From Turneriella sp. (GTDB taxonomy: Bacteria > Spirochaetota > Leptospiria > Turneriellales > Turneriellaceae), in assembly GCA_965279515.1 (NCBI GenBank), contig CBDIID010000003.1:3328001-3392000 (forward strand): DNA of 64,000 bases, given 5' to 3'. The notes under the pieces are model-generated. The model ran no database searches and was not told where the DNA came from. It was given only the letters and a program-made list of their open reading frames with translations. Below are positions 8,913-40,454 of the stretch, piece after piece (the first letter of the stretch is position 1; the number at the start of each line of letters is the position of its first letter). Both the position numbers and the translations under genes were made by a program.

Positions 8913-9713
8913 ATGAGAACGGCGATGACGCTCGAGTATGACGGCGCCGGTTATTTCGGTTTCCAGCGGCAAAACGGGCAAAATTCCGTGCAGGCCGAAC
9001 TCGAACGTGTGCTCACCATCGTGCTGCGCCAGAAGACCAGGGTCTATTGTGCGGGTCGTACCGATACCGGTGTCAACGCCCTGGGGCAGGTCGTGCATTT
9101 TGCCGCCGAGTCACAGCCCGATGTGGGCCGGCTGGTCTATGCGCTCAACAGCATGCTCCCCAAAGACATTGCGGTCCGCCATGCCGCCCGGGTCCCCGAC
9201 GACTTCCACGCACGTTTTTCATGCCTCGGCCGCGAGTATGTCTATCTCATCTACAACCACCCGTACCGCCCCGGCACACAGGGGTTTAAGGCTTTGTGGG
9301 TGCGCGATAAGCTCGAGTGGGATCGCGTACGGGACGCAATTCCGCATTTGCTGGGGGAGAAAAATTTCGCCGCTTTTACCAAAGTCAGGCTGGTGAAAAG
9401 CGGTGAGATTACGATCCGCCGCATCGATGCCATCGACGTGGTTCAGGATGAACTCTTTACCTATATCTATTTCCGCGGTTCGGGATTTTTGCACAACATG
9501 ATACGCATTCTGGTGGGCACACTGATCGATGTTGCGCGCGGCAATATCGACCCCCTCATGGTCGCGGAGATTATCGCGTCGACCGACCGCCTCGCTGCGG
9601 GGGTGACGATGAAGCCGCATGGCCTGTACTTCTTACACGCGAACTATAAGCATTATGAACAAGGTGAAGCGCAACATGGTTTGCGCAAGATGTTACTCGC
9701 TAAAATTCAATAG
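8913..9713 (+). CDS. truA: tRNA pseudouridine(38-40) synthase
   Basis: EYDGAGYFGFQRQ, AGRTDTGV, FHARF, GFLHNMIRILVG. Confidence 0.95.
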   Translation: MRTAMTLEYDGAGYFGFQRQNGQNSVQAELERVLTIVLRQKTRVYCAGRTDTGVNALGQVVHFAAESQPDVGRLVYALNSMLPKDIAVRHAARVPDDFHARFSCLGREYVYLIYNHPYRPGTQGFKALWVRDKLEWDRVRDAIPHLLGEKNFAAFTKVRLVKSGEITIRRIDAIDVVQDELFTYIYFRGSGFLHNMIRILVGTLIDVARGNIDPLMVAEIIASTDRLAAGVTMKPHGLYFLHANYKHYEQGEAQHGLRKMLLAKIQ

Positions 9714-9814
9714 TGACCTTCGCATTACCTGCGGACGGGAGGCCGGCGCAATGCTAAAGCTGATGGCGAAAAACGAAAGCGGCAAAGACACTGCCGGCAG
9801 GAAGAAATTTAAGT

Positions 9815-9847
9815 AAAACCGTGTAATCCGGTTTTCGGACTACACGG
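9815..9847 (-). terminator. Intrinsic terminator for the minus-strand lipoprotein gene
   Basis: Minus strand CCGTGTAGTCCG-AAAAC-CGGATTACACGG-TTTT with one G-U pair. Confidence 0.65.
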
Positions 9848-9867
9848 CTTCGTTTGAGGTCAGGAAA

Positions 9868-10344
9868 TTATTCTTTACCTTTAAATTCAGCGGACATGTC
9901 GATTTTCCATTCGCCGCCTTCGTTAACGAGTTTCATTTTTGTGTGCTGGGCATCGTCGAGCTCGAGGTCGATTGTGTTACCTTCTTGCTTTTCTGATTTG
10001 ATTTTATCAGCGTTGTATTTTTCTTCTTTGCCTTCGCTGGCTTGTTGTTTCAGGCCAAACTCCATCAGTTTAGCGGGTGAACAGTTGGCTATCACGTCTT
10101 CAGGCATTTTGGATGCCTGCGCAACGGCAGCGACCTGGTCTTTGGGAATCGCTTTCAGCGGTTCGCAGGTTTTTTCCATGCCTGCCAGCGTGTTTTTAGA
10201 AAGTAATGCCGTAAATGCTGCATAATCCTTCTTGTTCATTGCGTCGGCCGCTTTTTTAACCAGCGCTTTACCTGGTGTTTGTTTGCAAGCAACTGCAGCG
10301 AGCGCGACGCAGGCTACAATACTAATCTTCATCATTTTTTTCAT
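9868..10344 (-). CDS. Lipoprotein of unknown function (NTF2-like C-terminus)
   Basis: AGGAGA SD; MKKMMKISIVACVALAAVAC lipobox; LVNEGGEWKID. Confidence 0.75.
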   Translation of the reverse strand: MKKMMKISIVACVALAAVACKQTPGKALVKKAADAMNKKDYAAFTALLSKNTLAGMEKTCEPLKAIPKDQVAAVAQASKMPEDVIANCSPAKLMEFGLKQQASEGKEEKYNADKIKSEKQEGNTIDLELDDAQHTKMKLVNEGGEWKIDMSAEFKGKE

Positions 10345-10482
10345 GAATTCTCCTGGGAAATTTTTGGCAGATTCTGCCATGTCATAACACCTGCGTCGGT
10401 CATCGCTCCGTAAAGCTGGTTTTAGGTTGTGTGCTCGCAGAAATGGGGCGACTAGGCGAATTATCCCATTGTGTATGGGGCT

Positions 10483-11583
10483 TCAAATAAAAAGTGGCAG
10501 CCACTCTGCCTTGAACGCTGCAAATCTTTTCTCTGTGATGGCCATCCGCATGCTTTTCATGAAGTGAAACATAAAATGCAGGTTGTGGTAGGTGCTGAGC
10601 ATCAGGCCCAGAATTTCGCCCTGCTTATGCAGGTGGCGGATGTATCCCACGGAATAGGTTTTGCAAACCCTGCAGGAACAATGGGCGTCGATGGGTTCGT
10701 GCGAACGCGCGTGTTTTTCATTGCGCAGATTCACCTTGCCGGTTGAAGTGAAAACCTGGCCGTTGCGCGCGTTGCGCGTCGGCAGCACGCAGTCGAACAT
10801 GTCGACGCCGAGCTCGACGCCGTTCAAAAGTTCTGGAATCGAACCCACACCCATCACATAGCGCGGTTTGAGCGTAGGCAGATGTTCGATGGCCGCGCCC
10901 AGCGCGGGCACAAAATGTTCGAGCGGTTCGCCGACGGAAAGACCGCCGACGGCGTAGCCCGGTAAATCGAGGTCGGCGACCGCCTTGGCGCTGTCGGCGC
11001 GCAGTACAGGGTTAATCCCCCCCTGGGAAATGCCGAACACAACCTGGTGCTTAGGCTCACGCAGCCAGTGCTCTTTGCATTCGGCGAGCCAGCGGTGTGT
11101 GCGCACGAGGCTTTCTTTGAGGCGTTTATCGTCGGCGGGGAAGGGGGCGCAGTCATCGATCGGCATGATGATATCGGCGCCGATTTCTCGTTCAATGCGT
11201 ATGGTATTTTCAGGGGTGAAGTGGTGCTCGCTGCCGTCGAGGTGCGAGCGGAATTTCACACCGGCGTCGCTGAGTTTGACATTTTTACTCAGCGAAAAAG
11301 CCTGATAGCCGCCCGAGTCTGTGAGTACCGCGTGCGGCCACGCCATGAACTTATGGATGCCGCCAAAGCTGTCGATAAGGCCGCTGCCGGGCCTGAGGTA
11401 GAGGTGGTAGGTATTGCCGAGAATCAGTTGGTAGCCAATTTCGACGAGGTCTTCCTGAGATATGGCTTTGACTGTCGCTTGCGTGCCGACAGGCATAAAG
11501 ACGGGGGTTTCAACGCTGGCGTTACGGAAGGTCAGTGTTCCTGAGCGGGCATTGCCATCCGTGGTTTGGATTTTAAACTCCAT
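10483..11583 (-). CDS. tgt: tRNA-guanine transglycosylase
   Basis: TPVFMPVGT, NTYHL, LTDSGGYQ, DMFDCVLPTRNARNG, CxCxxC Zn site. Confidence 0.97.
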   Translation of the reverse strand: MEFKIQTTDGNARSGTLTFRNASVETPVFMPVGTQATVKAISQEDLVEIGYQLILGNTYHLYLRPGSGLIDSFGGIHKFMAWPHAVLTDSGGYQAFSLSKNVKLSDAGVKFRSHLDGSEHHFTPENTIRIEREIGADIIMPIDDCAPFPADDKRLKESLVRTHRWLAECKEHWLREPKHQVVFGISQGGINPVLRADSAKAVADLDLPGYAVGGLSVGEPLEHFVPALGAAIEHLPTLKPRYVMGVGSIPELLNGVELGVDMFDCVLPTRNARNGQVFTSTGKVNLRNEKHARSHEPIDAHCSCRVCKTYSVGYIRHLHKQGEILGLMLSTYHNLHFMFHFMKSMRMAITEKRFAAFKAEWLPLFI

Positions 11584-11706
11584 AACTCTGATCCGATTGT
11601 TTTGCTTTTGGAAACAGCGCGTAAACGTCTTAAGCGGCGCCTTGCCCAAAACATGGTTTACGCAGCGGACGCAGGGGAATGGGCTACGAACCATGGAGAA
11701 TAATTT

Positions 11707-12432
11707 ATGGTGAAATATCTTTCCCTGATTGTTATATTGCTGAGCCCCGTTCTGTCACAGCAACAGCAGAGGCAGGTGCTCGTCAAACCCGCGCTGGTTA
11801 TGCGTGATGCTCCCGATGTCAAAAGCAAGATGATAGGGAAGATTCCCTTCGGCCAACGGATTTCGCTTGAGGACGCGCGCGGCCCCGAGGTCTCGCTCAT
11901 GGGTATTTCAGGTTCGTGGGTAAAAGTCAACCATGGTGGGATGTCAGGCTGGGTGTTCGGCCCGTTTGTAGGTGAGGTTGATACGCAAAAATGGTACGAC
12001 ATCGTTGATGGCGTTGCCTATGAACGCAATCCTGAAGCCTGTCTGCAGATGCCGAAGAAACACTTTCCGCGTTTTTTCCTAGCGGGATGCCTGCAAAAAC
12101 CATGTAATCAAACCTGCGGCAACCTAACTCTTGAAGCAAACGGCACAGCGTATTATGTCAGCAGTTGCGACGGTACTGCGCAGGAAGACCGGGGTAAATG
12201 GCAGCGCAAAGGCCGATCTATAGTCATTAGCTATACCCAGAAAGATATGTCTCCCGAAGATGCCTGCAGTTACCGTGGCGTCACGCGGGAATGTATGGCC
12301 CCCATTGAAAAGGCAAATCAGGCAAAGTGCGGCAATAAAAACGGTTGCTCCGTTAAAGTTGTGCAGGAGCTGCATATGACTGCGGATAACCAGTTTACCC
12401 TCGCGGGAGAAAAGATTTGCGTCTATCCCTGA
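11707..12432 (+). CDS. Exported SH3b-domain protein with Cys-rich C-terminus
   Basis: Signal peptide; MRDAP...WVKV...GWVFG; GGAG SD. Confidence 0.75.
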   Translation: MVKYLSLIVILLSPVLSQQQQRQVLVKPALVMRDAPDVKSKMIGKIPFGQRISLEDARGPEVSLMGISGSWVKVNHGGMSGWVFGPFVGEVDTQKWYDIVDGVAYERNPEACLQMPKKHFPRFFLAGCLQKPCNQTCGNLTLEANGTAYYVSSCDGTAQEDRGKWQRKGRSIVISYTQKDMSPEDACSYRGVTRECMAPIEKANQAKCGNKNGCSVKVVQELHMTADNQFTLAGEKICVYP

Positions 12433-33772: not shown

Positions 33773-35158
33773 TCATTCTATACGCCGGATAATGTGATCT
33801 GAAAAATCGGTCACATAGAGATATGTACCGTCGCTGGTAATACCTGTCAGCTCCCTGAAACGGGCTGTGCCGGTTATTCCGCCTCCAGTGCCTATGACGG
33901 TGGTGGTCCCGGTCTCCCACCCGGATAGGGTTGATACAAAGCCCGTGGTTATATCGACACGGCGGATGCTGTAGCTGTCTTTGTCGGCGACATAGATATA
34001 TGTGCCGTCCGTGGTCAGATTGTTAATTCTCTTGAAGCGGGCGGTTCCCGGTGCGCCGTCTACATTGCCATAGCTGCCATTGCCTGCCAAAGTGCTGACT
34101 GTGGGGCCAGATGATAAATCGATGACGCGCACTGCCTGAAAAGCCGCTTCACCGACATAAACCTTGTTCGCATAATAGGTCACCGCGCAGGGGATCGTGA
34201 AGGTAGCGCTGGCGGCGGGGCCATTCACACTGGTGGCGGCGCCCGTGCCTGCCAGCGTCGTTGTGGCCCCGGTATTGATGTCGACCTTGCGGATGCGGTT
34301 ATTGTTGTAATCGGCGACGTACAAAAATGCGCCGTCGGTCGTGATACTGGTGGGGCCGTCGAAACGGACCGAGGTACCCGGCCCCGATGGAGCGTCGGCC
34401 ATGCCGCAGGTGAATGAGGCGCCTGCAAGAGTCGTGACCGCGAATGTTGTGAGATTCATTTTCGTGACGGTGCAGCCATAGAAGTGCACGGCGTATAAAT
34501 TCACGCCGTCGCTGGTGATACTGTCGCTGCCGCCGATATTTCCGAGCGTCGTCACATTGCGCGTAACGATGGTGATTTTACGCAACGCGCCTGAAGCTTC
34601 GAGAACAAATAGATTATTACCGTCGCTGGCCAGATATGCCGGTTGGGAGAATTTTGCACCGTTGCCAACACCGTTTGTCGAGGCGTTGATGCCTATCGTG
34701 CCTGCAAAAACCTGCCCCAGAATGACATCTGCATTTCCAGTCAGGGTCAGCGGATGAATAATATTTCCGCCAACCATCGGCCCGGCGCTCGAGCCGGCGG
34801 TGCACTGCACGCTTAAGGTGATATTGGCGGCGGCAAAGACACCGCTGGGATTCGTTATGCTGCAATACTGGGTCGGCGAGGTCGGGAACAGGGTTATGCT
34901 CGCTGCATAACTTTGTCCTGGAATAAATCCGGTTGTAAAAGCGGTCAAACCATTGGCGTTAATGGTCAGCGTTTCTGAGCCATTGCGGATTTGCAGGCCA
35001 GTACCGCTGAGGCCACTGACATTCACTTGTAAAACCAGCACGGATGCGGCGGCCGTGTTCGCCGGGGCATCTCCGAGAAAATTGGAGACCTTGCTATTTC
35101 CGCAATAGAGCATCACTGCGCCAAAAGAAAAAAGTGCAAACAATTTCTTAAGAGGCAC
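33773..35158 (-). CDS. NHL-repeat lipoprotein with N-terminal Ig-like domain
   Basis: GTG start, LYC lipobox; repeated ITxDGxxLYVAD..N.RIRK blades. Confidence 0.8.
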   Translation of the reverse strand: MPLKKLFALFSFGAVMLYCGNSKVSNFLGDAPANTAAASVLVLQVNVSGLSGTGLQIRNGSETLTINANGLTAFTTGFIPGQSYAASITLFPTSPTQYCSITNPSGVFAAANITLSVQCTAGSSAGPMVGGNIIHPLTLTGNADVILGQVFAGTIGINASTNGVGNGAKFSQPAYLASDGNNLFVLEASGALRKITIVTRNVTTLGNIGGSDSITSDGVNLYAVHFYGCTVTKMNLTTFAVTTLAGASFTCGMADAPSGPGTSVRFDGPTSITTDGAFLYVADYNNNRIRKVDINTGATTTLAGTGAATSVNGPAASATFTIPCAVTYYANKVYVGEAAFQAVRVIDLSSGPTVSTLAGNGSYGNVDGAPGTARFKRINNLTTDGTYIYVADKDSYSIRRVDITTGFVSTLSGWETGTTTVIGTGGGITGTARFRELTGITSDGTYLYVTDFSDHIIRRIE

Positions 35159-35384
35159 GTAAATAATCAATCGCCCATATTTCTGATTTTTGGTACTGAT
35201 TAGCAAGATGCGTCCCGAATAATTTAGCTACATATGTACCGGCGCAGCCAGGTTGCTGACCCTGCAGCCGAAATAATGACATGAATTGTCACATACGAGT
35301 AATTCCAGACTTTAATGCCATTTTTTTTGCCATCTCGGAATATTTCTATGGCACAGATTTGCCATTTTGCGCGTACAAGCGATA

Positions 35385-36797
35385 ATGAAGCTGGCGGCTA
35401 TAACTGTGGCGTTTGCGCTGATTTTGGGCGAAGTTTATGCTTTTGGCGATGCAACACATAAGAGGCTGCCAGAAGACGCGTTGCTGTACATGGAGATGCG
35501 TGGGTCGAATCAGCAGCGTTGGACAGCCGATTATCTGAAGGCAAAGGCCGGCGGGCGTTATGCGGGCACCTGCGTGAATGTGAACTATCCCCCCGCTAAT
35601 ATGGGTTCCGATAATACGCAGTGCGGAGCATTCGGCATATTGGCGATTGGTGGCTTTAAGCCTGACTATTTCCGCGATGCGTTTTGGGACATCCTGATCT
35701 ACGGCTGGGGGCCTCCCCAGGTATCTCTTTTAGAAGGTCAAAATTACACGGCCTGGTATCATTTTATCAACCTCATGGAAAGAAATGTCGATAACAATCG
35801 GCTGATTACAAATAACTATAATGCGTTTGATGGCTATGCACCCAACGCACTTTATTCCAACCTTGAGCTGGGTATGGATTGGCTGCTAACGACATTGATG
35901 AACAATGCAACGATGACCGTGGATTTGCAAGGTTGTACCGATTCTGCCTGCGTCGAAAAAAGCTCGGTTGCAACGGGAATTGATACGAACCCCGCGATCG
36001 ATTACCGGCAAAATGGCTCCTCAACTCCTGTGGGGCCGGGAACAGGATCAAAGAAGCTCGAAAACCAGGACGGAACAAATTACAATTGTTTCAGTGATAC
36101 GGCCCTGATTGGCGCCTGTCCGGATAATAGCGCAGCCTACGATGGAATTAACCAATACCCCAATGTGGTTCCCGGGGGCGCCGGATACGATCCGATCAGT
36201 CTTTTTACCGGAAACCAGGATTGGGTGGTCTATGAGCCATCGTATAATGCCGCAACTTTCTACTATAACGAGGTTTGGCTGGAGGGTTTTAGCTCCAGGA
36301 ATAGTTCACTCCAAACCGGACCCATTGTAAATCGTTACTACAATGTTTCGGGTCCTGAATTGCTGTATTTTGCCGCCGTGCATCATTATACAGGCGACGC
36401 GACCCAGATGACACATATTTGGCCAACACAGAGCTATAACCATCGGGAGTATGAAGGTTATGTGGGGGATAATTACGGAGAGCGCCTCATCGGTGGAACC
36501 GATGTGAAAAATTTCGAGGATTATGAGGTTGCCAATGCCTACGCAAACGTTCGGCAACACCGGTACAACGGGCCACCGGGAGATATTCATAAATTAATCA
36601 TTGAACAGGCTTTTCTAACCTACCATATCCGTTTCCGCAGTGGCTACGACAAAATGACAACGAGCAATCAGGCCATCTGGAGAAATGCGGGAGTTTGGGC
36701 GGTGAACAATTCCATAGCGGCAATGGCACTCACCAACGAAAAAGCCGTTCTCGATTTGCGCAAATGCCGAAATTCCGGGGCGTGCAATAATCTTTGA
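35385..36797 (+). CDS. Secreted Zn-dependent phospholipase C / P1-nuclease-fold protein
   Basis: Signal peptide then FGDATH; PD, WYHF, HYTGDATQMTH and HREYE metal-ligand pattern. Confidence 0.65.
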   Translation: MKLAAITVAFALILGEVYAFGDATHKRLPEDALLYMEMRGSNQQRWTADYLKAKAGGRYAGTCVNVNYPPANMGSDNTQCGAFGILAIGGFKPDYFRDAFWDILIYGWGPPQVSLLEGQNYTAWYHFINLMERNVDNNRLITNNYNAFDGYAPNALYSNLELGMDWLLTTLMNNATMTVDLQGCTDSACVEKSSVATGIDTNPAIDYRQNGSSTPVGPGTGSKKLENQDGTNYNCFSDTALIGACPDNSAAYDGINQYPNVVPGGAGYDPISLFTGNQDWVVYEPSYNAATFYYNEVWLEGFSSRNSSLQTGPIVNRYYNVSGPELLYFAAVHHYTGDATQMTHIWPTQSYNHREYEGYVGDNYGERLIGGTDVKNFEDYEVANAYANVRQHRYNGPPGDIHKLIIEQAFLTYHIRFRSGYDKMTTSNQAIWRNAGVWAVNNSIAAMALTNEKAVLDLRKCRNSGACNNL

Positions 36798-36833: not shown

Positions 36834-38417
36834 TCAGAAAAAAGTCAGCGAGACCATAAAACCGATAACAACGTTTTGGACACTATCTGCGTAGAGACGC
36901 GGGTCGGAACCGGCAGCGCCATAAACCGTGCCGAAATAAGAAAACCACGACATGCCAATGCCGAGATTGCGTGCCAGTTTCCATTCGATACCGGCATTGA
37001 GTTCGATACCAAAGCCGATTTTAGAAGCATAGGTCAGTGTCTCGGGGCCGTTGCCGAAATTGCCGTTTACGGTGATGCGGTTCCAGGCGGCATTGAGCGA
37101 GCCGCCGATAAAAAACCCGGATGGATGGAAATGGTAACGTCCGCCCGCACCGACGTTCAGTATCAATGGCTGCGTCGCGGAAGATTTTGTCAGGTTGCTG
37201 ACACCGCTCACGGCTCCAGTGAGAAAAAGCGCGATTTCATTCTTCAGTCTGAATCCGGCCATTCCCCTGGCCGTGATGCCTAGATCGGCGAGATCGATAT
37301 TGCGCAGCGTGCCGGCTGAGGGCATAAAGAAATGGAAAGAAGGGCCGAAAACGCCGGCAACGAAAAAATCAGAATTGTAACGCTCTTTGACCGGGGTTTG
37401 GATATCCACCGCGAGGGGATTGAAGTGTTTTATCTCGAGTTCTTTTCTCTCATTCTTTTGCAAAGCAACGTCTGCGTTCAAAATATTCTTATCCTGAAAG
37501 ATGCGGATATGGAACCGCTCGGGCGGCAGGCGCACCGTGAGAGGTTTTGCCGAAGTTTTGTGGAGTTTGAGACCCAGGTGGTTCTCGTTGTCGAAGATAT
37601 AGATCTTGCCTTCGATGCCGTTACCGAACACGAGTTGCGCTCCCACCTGCTTCAGGTCAGAGACAGGCAGATCGCCATAACCCGAGACCTTAAAATCAAA
37701 AAAAGGATGCTGCGGGCCAGCGCGTGACTCGAGGGTATTCGCGAGCGTCTCTTCATAGGAATAGGTGTAAGCCTCATGGAGACTCACGCGTGAATCATGG
37801 TTGAGATCAGCCGCGCCGCGCAGCCCTGCAATCAGGTTGTGTGTGAAATAAGAGCCGCGCAGCTGGTCCGATTCCTGCGAATCCTCGGAAGAAGAGCTCG
37901 AGGCGAGAATCGCTGTGCCGCGGTGGCTCACCGATTCCGAAAGTACGGCCGAGGGCACTCTCTTGCCGCCCTTGATGCGCGCGAGGCTGCCCGACGAGCA
38001 CGAATCGAGAATGACGATGTTGACTTCGGAGGGCAGATCATGGATCCATTTTTTGAGTTCCGCGAAGTCCAAAACCGAGTTTTCGATGAGGAGTCCCGTC
38101 TCGTCGGAGTGGCCGGAATAATAGAAAAAAACCTCGCGCGCGGATTCTCTGCTTGCGGCGAGCATGCCCGTAAACTTGCGCAGGTTGCGGCGTAACGCCT
38201 GGATGTCAGGCTCGATGAGAACGATGGAATTCTCGTTTTTCAAATTGCCGATTTCAACCAGCGTCGCATGCAGCTGCCGGGCGTCGCGGTGTGCATACTT
38301 GAGCAGTGCCTTTTTGCTGCCGCCGTTGTTCTTGCCGATGAAAAGCCCGAAACGCGTTCCCGCAAAGAGGCCCTGCGCTAAAGACAGCAGAAAAAACAGC
38401 GCAGTGAGCGACTTCAT
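36834..38417 (-). CDS. Exported caspase-like protease (peptidase C14) with probable C-terminal outer-membrane beta-barrel
   Basis: Signal peptide; LKYAHRDA, FYYSGHS (His), ILDSCSSG (Cys), GSYFTHNL..GLRGAAD, QHP; amphipathic strands ending SLTFF. Confidence 0.88.
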   Translation of the reverse strand: MKSLTALFFLLSLAQGLFAGTRFGLFIGKNNGGSKKALLKYAHRDARQLHATLVEIGNLKNENSIVLIEPDIQALRRNLRKFTGMLAASRESAREVFFYYSGHSDETGLLIENSVLDFAELKKWIHDLPSEVNIVILDSCSSGSLARIKGGKRVPSAVLSESVSHRGTAILASSSSSEDSQESDQLRGSYFTHNLIAGLRGAADLNHDSRVSLHEAYTYSYEETLANTLESRAGPQHPFFDFKVSGYGDLPVSDLKQVGAQLVFGNGIEGKIYIFDNENHLGLKLHKTSAKPLTVRLPPERFHIRIFQDKNILNADVALQKNERKELEIKHFNPLAVDIQTPVKERYNSDFFVAGVFGPSFHFFMPSAGTLRNIDLADLGITARGMAGFRLKNEIALFLTGAVSGVSNLTKSSATQPLILNVGAGGRYHFHPSGFFIGGSLNAAWNRITVNGNFGNGPETLTYASKIGFGIELNAGIEWKLARNLGIGMSWFSYFGTVYGAAGSDPRLYADSVQNVVIGFMVSLTFF

Positions 38418-39214
38418 GCTTTCTTGAGTCGTATCGCTATCTGCAGCGCGCCCTTAGGCAATTCTTTACCGGGTTTGCCGCGACGCGTCAGGGATTTCAT
38501 GATTTTTTTCAGCGGCAGCGGTTCATCTGCCGCAATGAAAAAGAACTGTTCAAAACCCGGCCTGTCATCGAGCTTAAAGGCGTGGGGGATTTTCACTTTT
38601 GCACCGCCCATAAGTTCCTGTGGCGCCTTTTCCGATTCGGGGAAATGCAGGCTCACCGCTTTATCGGCGTCCACTGAGACGATGAAACCATAACGGTTAC
38701 CCGAGGCGCGGTAGGCGATCTGGATTTCATCGCCGCCTTCCACTTTGTCGCCGTCTGCCAGAATCTGCTCTTTGCCAGCGCGGATTATGGATAAGAAGAG
38801 GGTGGGTGTAAGCCCTTTGCTGCGGACTGTGTTTTCGTTGTCATGGCCATTTAAAACGATGAGATTCGTTTCCTGCTTGCCGGCGATTTTATCTTCGCCT
38901 TTTTGCTGAGTCGCTTGGGGGAAATAGAGAACCGCGGCGATGCAGGCGGCCGCAAATACGAGAGCGCCAAGAGCGCGCGGGCCGAAAATTTTTCGAAACC
39001 AGGGTTCGGTTTCAGGTTCTTGGGAGAAAGCTCCGCCGCGCAGCCGCGGGTGGGCGCGGTAATAGTCTTCTGTTTCTTTTTTGAGCGCATCAAGTTGTTT
39101 GCGCAGCGCCGCGTTTCTGCCGAGTTCTTTTTCCACGGCGGTCATTTCGGCGGCCGGCAACTCGCCCAGCAAATAGCGTTCGAGCTTCAGGTTGAAACCT
39201 TTTTGTTTATGCAT
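38414..39214 (-). CDS. Single-pass anti-sigma-like protein with periplasmic DUF4384-like domain
   Basis: LERYLLGEL N-domain, TM helix, RSKG, GDEIQIAY, VSLHFP, FKLDD..GFEQFFF. Confidence 0.7.
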   Translation of the reverse strand: MHKQKGFNLKLERYLLGELPAAEMTAVEKELGRNAALRKQLDALKKETEDYYRAHPRLRGGAFSQEPETEPWFRKIFGPRALGALVFAAACIAAVLYFPQATQQKGEDKIAGKQETNLIVLNGHDNENTVRSKGLTPTLFLSIIRAGKEQILADGDKVEGGDEIQIAYRASGNRYGFIVSVDADKAVSLHFPESEKAPQELMGGAKVKIPHAFKLDDRPGFEQFFFIAADEPLPLKKIMKSLTRRGKPGKELPKGALQIAIRLKKA

Positions 39215-39692
39215 AGATCTCTGCCTTCATCTTTTCCGCCTTCTCAGATAATTTCCTCAGGCGCTTTCTGACTCCCGATACAGACAGGCCGGATATTTCA
39301 GAAATTTCTTCGTAGTTCAGCTCGTCGACATAACGCATCACGGCGATTTCCATCATGTCGTCTTTTTCCCCGGCGAAAACCCGTGCGAGAACCTCTTTCC
39401 CTTCGAGGCTTTCTGAAAAGTCATCTTTACCTTCAATGTTATTAAAAAACGCGTCATCCTTAAAGCTGATTTGTTTTTCTCTCTTCAGGATATTCAGGCA
39501 GGTGTTTGTCGCAATGCGGAATAACAACGAGCTCGGGAATTCATCCCTGATGCGCGCATTGTTTTTCAGAAGGGCCATAAATACCTCCTGCACGGCATCC
39601 TGGGCGCGGCTTTCATCACCCAGCATTTGCCGGCACCTGCGGAAAACCATAGCCCCGTACTTGCGGTAGTACAGTTCTATGTCGACAGGCAA
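39207..39692 (-). CDS. ECF RNA polymerase sigma factor
   Basis: Region 2 (AQDAVQEVF, LFRIATNTCLN) and region 4 HTH (NYEEISEISGLSVSGVRKRL). Confidence 0.9.
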   Translation of the reverse strand: MPVDIELYYRKYGAMVFRRCRQMLGDESRAQDAVQEVFMALLKNNARIRDEFPSSLLFRIATNTCLNILKREKQISFKDDAFFNNIEGKDDFSESLEGKEVLARVFAGEKDDMMEIAVMRYVDELNYEEISEISGLSVSGVRKRLRKLSEKAEKMKAEIYA

Positions 39693-39855
39693 GCTTTCCC
39701 CTCACAATCCATAAACAACTGAACAGTGAATAACTGTCACCCTACGGCGTCTATTTTTTTGCCGGACCTGAGAAAAATCCGTTGGTTTTTGGTATTTAAA
39801 CTGTAGGATGGAAAATTAAAATTTTCTGGACAGGGTATGGGAGTGGGGGTAGATT

Positions 39856-40113
39856 ATGACTATGAGCGAGTGGGTTATCTTAGCTTTGGGGCTGGCTGGG
39901 ATTGTTGCGCTCATCAACGTACCGATCTTTTTTTTGCAGCGCCGTGAATCCAGAGAACGGCATGCGGATCTCCGGGCTTTCCAGCTGCAAAATGCCCGTT
40001 TAATTCTGGAAAATCGCCGTGAAAGTCGCCGCAGCCACGAAGATACCAAAGCTTTTCTCAAATCAATGGGTATCCGGCTGGATCAGGTTTTCGAACGCGT
40101 CGATAACCACTGA
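39856..40113 (+). CDS. Small hypothetical protein with one TM helix
   Basis: N-terminal hydrophobic helix, G-rich SD-like sequence. Confidence 0.5.
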   Translation: MTMSEWVILALGLAGIVALINVPIFFLQRRESRERHADLRAFQLQNARLILENRRESRRSHEDTKAFLKSMGIRLDQVFERVDNH

Positions 40114-40118
40114 AAGCG

Positions 40119-40454
40119 TTATTTCCGCGGCCTGAAATCCTTATCGTTCGAAAATACCAGCTTGCATTGTTTGCGTACACAGAGGTAGGCATGCGTCAGG
40201 CAAGACCCCGCATTGGGGCATTTCGCCTCTTTCGGGCAGTGTAATGCCGCGCGTGCCTTTTCGAGTTCTTTTGTATTGATCACCAGCGAAGTGCATGGGG
40301 TCGGGCAGCAGCCAGGCGCTGGTATACAATCGGCGTCCGATTGACACGATGTATCGTAAGGCGCCGAGCGCAGTATATTGATCTGCGTGTGCGATTTTGC
40401 CGAAAGGCCTGACAACAAAACGGCAGATAAAAGAAAGCCGATGATCTTCTTCAT
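40119..40454 (-). CDS. Small Cys-rich secreted protein
   Basis: Signal peptide; CQSDADC..CC..C disulfide-rich pattern. Confidence 0.65.
   Translation of the reverse strand: MKKIIGFLLSAVLLSGLSAKSHTQINILRSAPYDTSCQSDADCIPAPGCCPTPCTSLVINTKELEKARAALHCPKEAKCPNAGSCLTHAYLCVRKQCKLVFSNDKDFRPRK

Follow-up and report, generated by a model that had tools for sequence, protein, structure and literature searches.

A conserved operon pairing an ECF sigma factor plus its putative anti-sigma factor with a predicted barrel-anchored caspase in Turneriella: a candidate trans-envelope switch

Introduction

For the majority of caspase homologues in bacteria, neither a substrate nor a trigger nor a role is known. 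Operons joining a sigma-70 gene to a metacaspase were listed in 2012 from M. xanthus, Anaeromyxobacter, Haliangium, Sorangium and other Deltaproteobacteria, and from Ralstonia and Fibrobacter (PMC3501461). Here we analyse an operon of three overlapping genes, the triad, in a 64,000-nt stretch of DNA from Turneriella sp. (GenBank assembly GCA_965279515.1, contig CBDIID010000003.1, positions 3,328,001 to 3,392,000; hereafter the window), which encodes a sigma factor of the extracytoplasmic function (ECF) type, a putative membrane anti-sigma factor and a C14 caspase. The triad is real and conserved, and its mechanism is uncharacterised. We consider it probable that it works as a trans-envelope switch, in which the caspase, predicted to be barrel-anchored, would serve as a dedicated site-1 protease that activates itself before the glycine of its own RIKG and cuts the anti-sigma factor before the glycine of RSKG, after which RseP would free the sigma factor. 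The operons listed in 2012 share with the triad loci the co-operonic sigma-70 and metacaspase genes and overlap them in taxa, and they probably belong to the same family; the section of that source on operons names no anti-sigma factor, barrel, motif, promoter or mechanism. The remark of an initial annotation that it did not recognise this as a characterised mechanism is thus to be narrowed: such operons had already been listed, without an anti-sigma factor or a mechanism.

Other described systems share single parts of the triad. For DdvA of Myxococcus xanthus, cleavage by the CHAT domain that the protein itself carries in the periplasm has been proposed, a self-cleavage as unproven as the cut proposed here (PMC11506125). 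Among the C-terminal domains of Csx30, one group belongs to DUF4384 (10.1101/2022.08.17.504292). Non-caspase members of C14 cleave after Arg/Lys, and the orthocaspase MaOC1 needs self-processing for activity (PMC5756287). In the ECF reclassification (Casas-Pastor), ECF25 anti-sigma factors carry a zinc domain and/or DUF4384, with a GGAAC/GTC promoter in s1 and s2; the word caspase is absent from its main text and from the part of its supplement examined. In PMC8999054, CHAT proteins are mentioned near ECF54 only. A literature search that left out bioRxiv supplements found no account of the triad mechanism, nor one treating DUF4384, ECF and caspase together.

Results

The initial annotation described three overlapping open reading frames (ORFs) on one strand, and we recover the same layout: the sigma and anti-sigma genes overlap by 8 nt (39207-39214), and the anti-sigma gene meets the caspase gene at an ATGA junction (38414-38417). 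A GAGGGG stretch resembling a ribosome-binding site precedes the start codon of the sigma gene. The Turneriella genome holds one close copy of each of the three genes, and the GC content of the operon region is about that of the remainder of the window.

Conservation of the triad, which the initial annotation had proposed as a check, is borne out. Species genomes were scanned with an anti-sigma alignment and the pattern LE[RQ]YLLGEL, giving 209 stretches, of which 111 were confirmed and the best 80 kept (79 distinct). This N-terminal pattern ignores both neighbouring genes and RxKG. The order sigma, anti-sigma, caspase recurs in 72/79 related loci from several phyla, with titles that include Spirochaetota, Myxococcota, Fibrobacterota, Aminicenantes, Acidobacteriota and Gemmatimonadota. 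The seven remaining loci comprise four at contig ends (L042, L059, L064, L079), a 66-aa anti-sigma fragment (L074), a weak match (L076) and L030, which is taken up below. The count of triads includes L003, whose caspase is in pieces; broken caspase genes (several frames; one TGA) occur in two Turneriella-type assemblies (L003:6881-8412 and G003:C7:5404-6277) beside intact sigma genes, anti-sigma genes and promoter sites, and reflect either decay or assembly error. The closest named loci are from Turneriella and Leptospiraceae assemblies, at 47-48% identity. A strong caspase match is present in 8/31 relatives and in 4/14 genomes of the same genus, a patchiness that makes the module accessory.

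The family is large. A profile of the anti-sigma ectodomain matches 1,953 clusters, formed at 50% identity, when the limit is E 1e-30, and 5,879 when it is E 0.001, and the triad system is a superfamily. Loci L093, L094, L098, L099 and L100 encode paralogous DUF4384 anti-sigma factors whose N-termini are of the zinc type; a genome has several such loci, most of them with sigma and caspase matches and with K-G in both partners. A close caspase homologue, P0145, is recorded for the genetic model Myxococcus xanthus.

For the sigma factor, Sigma70_r2 (PF04542, 46.7 bits), Sigma70_r4_2 (PF08281, 27.3 bits) and TIGR02937 (63.7 bits against a cut-off of 42.9) all score above their cut-offs, in agreement with the initial annotation. 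The small protein carries sigma2 and sigma4 domains only, which by its sequence assigns it to the ECF (group 4) sigma-70 factors.

The second protein is likely a class I membrane anti-sigma factor, given the position of its gene at +1, its N-terminal three-helix domain and its one transmembrane helix. The cytoplasmic domain is predicted to be class I anti-sigma-like without zinc ligands; it gives a weak match to NF052375 (E 1.9e-4, far under the cut-off), and the zinc-binding anti-sigma motif H-x3-C-x2-C is absent from P0002 and from 143/143 full-length relatives. The same motif is found in 5/5 paralogous anti-sigma factors examined from distant triads of Myxococcota and Deltaproteobacteria, and these zinc-type domains support the anti-sigma assignment for the family. 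Hydropathy of the membrane segment exceeds 1.5 in 132/134 relatives scored. Beyond it, a linker (residues 98-132) is disordered in the model (pLDDT <50), and an Ig-like sandwich is modelled confidently from residue 135, so that RSKG forms the joint of linker and domain. As first described, the protein has a single hydrophobic segment, RSKG and a DUF4384-like match; the last (PF14326) falls slightly under its 27-bit cut-off, and many close relatives bear a precomputed DUF4384 label. A fold search with the ectodomain returned generic Ig-like matches only (best Z 8.9, rmsd 2.9, 103 residues aligned). Outside the motif, S180, D182, L215, D216, E222 and F224 are invariant.

The third protein is a C14 protease with an intact dyad, as the initial annotation held. 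Peptidase_C14 (PF00656) scores 46.1 bits against a cut-off of 21.4, and SGHS (residues 101-104, His103) and DSC (138-140, Cys140) are both present; the caspase fold and the His-Cys dyad place P0003, by sequence, in the metacaspase/orthocaspase type of Peptidase C14. That it is exported holds in part. A signal peptide is indicated by hydropathy (1.54) and by the N-terminal helix of the model, but the protein is not simply exported, since a C-terminal outer-membrane barrel is predicted. The model (mean pLDDT 80.4) comprises a catalytic domain, a small beta-sandwich and an 8-stranded barrel, and Foldseek returned the yeast metacaspase Yca1 first, NspA second (E 3.3e-8) and OmpA and Ail lower; PF13505 matches the barrel at E 0.0018, below its cut-off. 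Barrels of eight strands have both termini in the periplasm and are too narrow for passenger export. The protease domain is therefore predicted to lie in the periplasm, tethered through the barrel to the outer membrane.

Metacaspases are the closest sequences among solved structures. D45 and D138 are invariant, align with the conserved Asp of metacaspase-4 and match the acidic pocket residues of Arg/Lys-specific metacaspases. The stretch D204-E215, which resembles an EF-hand loop, is a possible Ca2+ site, and its pattern occurs in 55/74 caspases. In longer homologues of the caspase, M. xanthus P0145 among them, the C-terminal part contains LA_2272 repeats. The Turneriella genome also encodes a second, distant exported C14 protein of ~520 aa (L101:2889-4457; G000:C3, near 4798035), and similar matches exist in most genomes of the genus.

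Table 1 Features of the triad and its predicted promoter, in window coordinates.
Feature	Position	Strand	Details
Sigma gene	39207..39692	minus	161 aa, TTG start, P0001
Putative anti-sigma gene	38414..39214	minus	266 aa, P0002, single-pass
C14 caspase gene	36834..38417	minus	527 aa, P0003; catalytic domain and beta-sandwich, flanked by a predicted signal peptide and a predicted outer-membrane barrel
Predicted -35 element GTGACA of autoregulatory ECF promoter	39735..39740	minus	Motif conservation; function inferred
Predicted -10 element TTGTT (family consensus GTGTT), 16-nt spacer	39714..39718	minus	21.6 bits
Cytoplasmic three-helix domain (residues 9-54)	39053..39190	minus	Model helices 9-16, 21-33, 35-54
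Transmembrane helix (residues 81-99)	38918..38974	minus	Hydropathy 2.19
R131-S-K133-G134 (RSKG, residues 131-134), predicted cleavage site at end of disordered linker	38813..38824	minus	Conservation
DUF4384-like periplasmic Ig-like beta-sandwich (residues 135-266)	38417..38812	minus	PF14326 26.6 bits
Catalytic His103	38109..38111	minus	61/61 in caspase alignment
Catalytic Cys140	37998..38000	minus	61/61 in caspase alignment
R147-I-K149-G150, predicted self-processing site in post-Cys loop	37968..37979	minus	R-x-K-G-G 72/74
EF-hand-like 12-residue loop D204-E215	37773..37808	minus	D204 61/61, D208 58/61, E215 60/61
8-stranded outer-membrane beta-barrel (residues 351-527), C-terminal Phe	36837..37367	minus	Model strands, Foldseek

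A shared motif links the two envelope proteins. Across the related loci, in answer to a question that the initial annotation had raised, K133 is kept in 78/79 aligned anti-sigma factors, G134 in 77/79 and R131 in 68/79, and positions 124-128 are variable; K133 and G134 are thus among the most conserved residues of the protein, at the boundary between the domain and a linker that is otherwise unconserved. The distance from R-x-K-G to the membrane has a median of 19 residues. Among the 150 best matches to the ectodomain profile, a biased set because the profile includes the motif, 141 have R-x-K-G, 8 have K-G and one has neither. The caspases carry the same consensus, [TVI]-R-x-K-G, 7-10 residues past the catalytic Cys in 72/74 cases, within the longer pattern D-x-C-x-S-G-x3-R-x-K-G-G, and K-G-G is kept in the other two. 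The loop that follows K149 is modelled as disordered (residues 149-163, pLDDT <50). This post-Cys loop is the region of C14 self-processing (PMC5756287). Partners pair such motifs as TRIKG with TRLKG and VRSKG with ARIKG, and in distant paralogous triads of Myxococcota and Deltaproteobacteria K-G is kept in both proteins. We set aside an apparent covariation of the variable motif residue between partners (18/61 identical against 11.6 in shuffles, with 29/2000 shuffles reaching 18), because related genomes are not independent.

A further basic residue followed by Gly lies just past the caspase beta-sandwich in 66/69 family members, a count that omits L016, L029 and L037 because their windows were misregistered. 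RG occurs there in 63/71, against 5-25 in four control windows. This second R/K-G, a putative release site, is absent from P0003 (which has ERY), L001 and L002. In these three the anti-sigma linker has 33 residues against a median of 21, a pairing that is only a lead, since the three are close kin and longer linkers also occur together with the site.

Motif discovery on the regions upstream of the sigma gene gave GT(G/A)ACA-N16-(G/T)TGTT, which is present in 63/75 loci against 0.34 in resampled controls (L021 and L051 excluded). When the genome was scored with a matrix of 52 sites that leaves out the window's own, the site at the operon (21.6 bits) was second-best. The third match (21.3 bits) lies 38 nt before a gene for a 359-aa exported protein, CsgG-like with a barrel-like part, and the fourth (19.3 bits) faces no listed ORF; matches below 17 bits are within chance, the count above 15 bits being 15 where 9.8 would be expected. 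The 359-aa protein (P0242; G000:C3:1757774-1758853, also L080:1275-2354) has a CsgG/FlgO-like domain and a C-terminal part with a faint resemblance to the barrel of the caspase (25% over 93 aa, pairwise E 0.004), and its gene is probably a sigma target, the best distant candidate in the Turneriella genome. Its homologues in four genomes that have no strong caspase match show no site (best 9.8 bits; upstream DNA is short at one locus).

Thirty extra sites above 17 bits occur in 27 of 79 loci, against 0-2 in shuffles, and 28 face an ORF within 160 nt. A hydrophobic N-terminus is found in 25/28 of these ORFs against 35% of control ORFs, and a C-terminal F/W/Y in 12/28 against 11%; the counts include kin, namely six Fibrobacter and three Turneriella-type loci. 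Pfam matches were obtained for 8/23 scanned targets (TonB plug 3, DUF2807 2, OMP barrel 1, ExbB 1, weak glycine zipper 1). In L017, L022 and L059 the caspase alignment finds matches in the targets, which resemble copies of the caspase's C-terminal module that lack the caspase domain. In five other genomes the exact pattern gave 24 matches against 11 in a control, a noisy comparison, and its sites include two TonB-plug genes. In Fibrobacter loci L047, L054, L056, L067 and L069 (~9100-11900) a near-perfect motif directly follows the caspase gene and is followed by a gene for an 830-855-aa protein, which in the two scanned (L047, L054) has a TonB plug domain.

Several other genes flank the operon. 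On its upstream side are a divergent gene for a small 85-aa single-pass coiled-coil protein (39856-40113, plus strand) and one for a Cys-rich exported protein of 111 aa (40119-40454, minus strand), both with no confident family. A gene for a 476-aa exported PLC-like protein (35367-36797, plus strand) converges on the caspase gene, and divergent from it is a gene for a 477-aa NHL-repeat protein (33773-35206, minus strand) with a Cys after the hydrophobic N-terminus, possibly a lipoprotein. The PLC label is poorly founded: Pfam, NCBIfam and the PDB gave no match for this protein, and Atlas features place it at 0.95 with 'Phospholipase C family protein', with a recognition of 2181 against a mark of 2300. 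The initial annotation offered the PLC-like and NHL genes as targets of the sigma factor, a suggestion we reject: the best motif there reaches 2.8 bits (35100-35450) against 21.6 at the operon, neither gene clustered with other loci or is among the 22 largest of the neighbour clusters listed, and the PLC-like gene runs towards the caspase gene.

Discussion

That the caspase is a site-1 protease cutting near RSKG, as first proposed, has indirect support in the conservation of the triad, of K133/G134 and of the same R-x-K-G in the caspase loop, and in the match of the acidic pocket residues to those of Arg/Lys-specific metacaspases. At rest, the anti-sigma factor would hold the sigma factor, and the caspase would be a zymogen whose RIKG loop is still intact. 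An envelope signal, received through the outer face of the barrel or the EF-hand-like Ca2+ loop, would trigger self-cleavage after K149; the active caspase would then cut the anti-sigma factor after K133, removing the entire Ig-like domain. RseP and cytoplasmic proteases would complete the breakdown, and the freed sigma factor would transcribe its own operon in positive feedback, together with a few genes for outer-membrane or exported proteins, from GT(G/A)ACA-N16-(G/T)TGTT promoters. A candidate site-2 protease, on sequence grounds, is a 508-aa RseP-like ORF at G000:C3:1551911-1553434, which has HELGH near its N-terminus; a pattern search for the second RseP motif gave no match in it.

Several observations weigh against this mechanism. 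On the enzyme side, the specificity-pocket Cys of metacaspases (LRGCxND) is replaced by Ala in P0003, and a dyad alone is no proof of activity (PMC5756287). Lacking the second R/K-G site, P0003 must reach across the periplasm while tethered. On the substrate side, R131 is substituted in 11/79 anti-sigma factors, and K-G at the first strand of the domain could be a structural or docking element. The shared motif is not confined to the triad: the L101 caspase carries AKKG...TRG in its post-Cys loop, and its 7-kb locus gave no match to a sigma or anti-sigma factor. K/R-G in this loop may be a general self-processing feature; even so, it speaks for a cut between a basic residue and Gly. L030 (5441-6693, from a Fibrimonadaceae assembly) has sigma and anti-sigma genes with no following caspase although sequence is available; its caspase may lie elsewhere in that genome. 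The promoter motif is partly palindromic, with 15/75 regions matching on the reverse strand too, and the top match in the genome (22.5 bits) lies inside a gene. In Haliangium, moreover, the small caspase partner PCi is an inhibitor, and the sigma factor itself is cut (10.1101/2023.06.23.546230).

That precedent bears on an alternative we regard as unlikely, in which the anti-sigma ectodomain inhibits or tethers the caspase, R-x-K-G docks as a pseudo-substrate or slow bait, and a signal breaks the bridge so that another protease cuts the anti-sigma factor. PCi both inhibits PCaspase and is cut by it (10.1101/2023.06.23.546230), and DUF4384 is often fused to proteases (10.1101/2022.08.17.504292). 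The shared motif suits a substrate-like inhibitor equally well, and the invariant ectodomain residues (S180, D182, L215, D216, E222, F224) suggest a binding surface. However, a cut at the motif would remove the whole ectodomain at a median distance of 19 residues from the membrane, as would be expected for site-1 cleavage in regulated intramembrane proteolysis, and no other protease is among the conserved neighbour clusters listed.

It is rather improbable that the caspase cuts the anti-sigma factor constitutively, as maturation, with the halves staying paired until a signal separates them, as in self-cleaving anti-sigma factors. MaOC1 does autoprocess without further activation (PMC5756287), and constitutive cleavage with retained products is known for other anti-sigma factors (PMC11506125). 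K133, however, precedes the first Ig-like strand, so the upstream stub offers no evident strand by which the halves could be kept joined, and the barrel and variable repeats of the caspase suggest that sensing is located there.

ECF sigma factors often transcribe downstream effectors. The least probable of the alternatives is that the caspase is a mere output of this kind, processing outer-membrane or exported proteins or mediating damage, with general envelope proteases cutting the anti-sigma factor and K-G being structural: the predicted regulon of outer-membrane proteins, the broad specificity of PCaspase (10.1101/2023.06.23.546230) and the caspase-free L030 fit it, but all the other predicted targets differ between loci, unlike the caspase, which is fixed and coupled in translation, and the identical R-x-K-G consensus in both proteins would be a coincidence.

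Returning to the caspase as site-1 protease, the wider proposal is that the outer-membrane sensor is itself the protease across a widespread class, the zymogen carrying a copy of its substrate site, activating itself, cutting the anti-sigma factor and inducing outer-membrane protein genes; we hold this to have an even chance of being right. As parts of that proposal, most members would also free the caspase from the barrel at the second R/K-G, and some of the induced genes would be caspase-free copies of the caspase's outer module. The large family offers a named substrate, predicted cut and self-activation sites, a promoter and candidate targets, so that the whole chain is directly testable. 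If the proposal is true, an outer-membrane cysteine protease joins the known site-1 enzymes, and bacterial caspases gain a non-death signalling role in a receptor-coupled transcription pathway independent of CRISPR and cell death. It would also hint at the origin of the protease/DUF4384/sigma modules of type III CRISPR systems.

Among described systems, the triad resembles DdvS-DdvA of Myxococcus xanthus in its ECF sigma factor, its single-pass anti-sigma factor with a three-helix domain, its periplasmic caspase-fold candidate for site-1 cleavage and the proposed action of RseP at site 2 (PMC11506125). It differs in that DdvA itself carries TPR-CHAT, whereas in the triad the protease is encoded apart, as a C14 enzyme predicted to sit on an outer-membrane barrel; the triad ectodomain is a 132-residue DUF4384-like beta-sandwich, and the predicted regulon consists of outer-membrane proteins rather than CBASS/CRISPR. 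The Haliangium ochraceum system of SAVED-CHAT, PCaspase, PCi and PCc-sigma likewise encodes, with a sigma factor and a small partner, a C14 caspase activated by cleavage, which in the triad is predicted (10.1101/2023.06.23.546230); that system is cytoplasmic, triggered by cA3 via a second protease, broad in specificity and directed to abortive infection. ECF25 fits the triad in taxa and DUF4384, but its promoter differs and no caspase is listed for its context in the part of the supplement examined. As in Craspase (Csx29-Csx30-RpoE), a caspase-fold protease would cut a sigma-binding protein, a cut that is predicted for the triad (10.1101/2022.08.17.504292). The Craspase protease, however, is a cytoplasmic CHAT enzyme activated by target RNA that cuts after Met in D. 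ishimotonii, whereas the triad protease has a predicted signal peptide and a predicted barrel. The 10 ORFs scanned include no cas gene, and none was recognised among the neighbour clusters listed, in a search that did not extend to the entire genome.

In the cell-surface signalling system FecI-FecR-FecA, a protein of the outer membrane passes a signal on to an anti-sigma factor in the inner membrane. RpoE-RseA-DegS-RseP provides the order proposed for the triad, with site-1 and then site-2 cleavage of a single-pass anti-sigma factor (PMC7826278). An autoregulated ECF promoter, predicted for the triad, belongs to such systems. Set against both, the site-1 enzyme of the triad would be an outer-membrane-anchored cysteine protease fused to a presumed sensor, rather than an inner-membrane serine protease or a TonB-dependent transducer.

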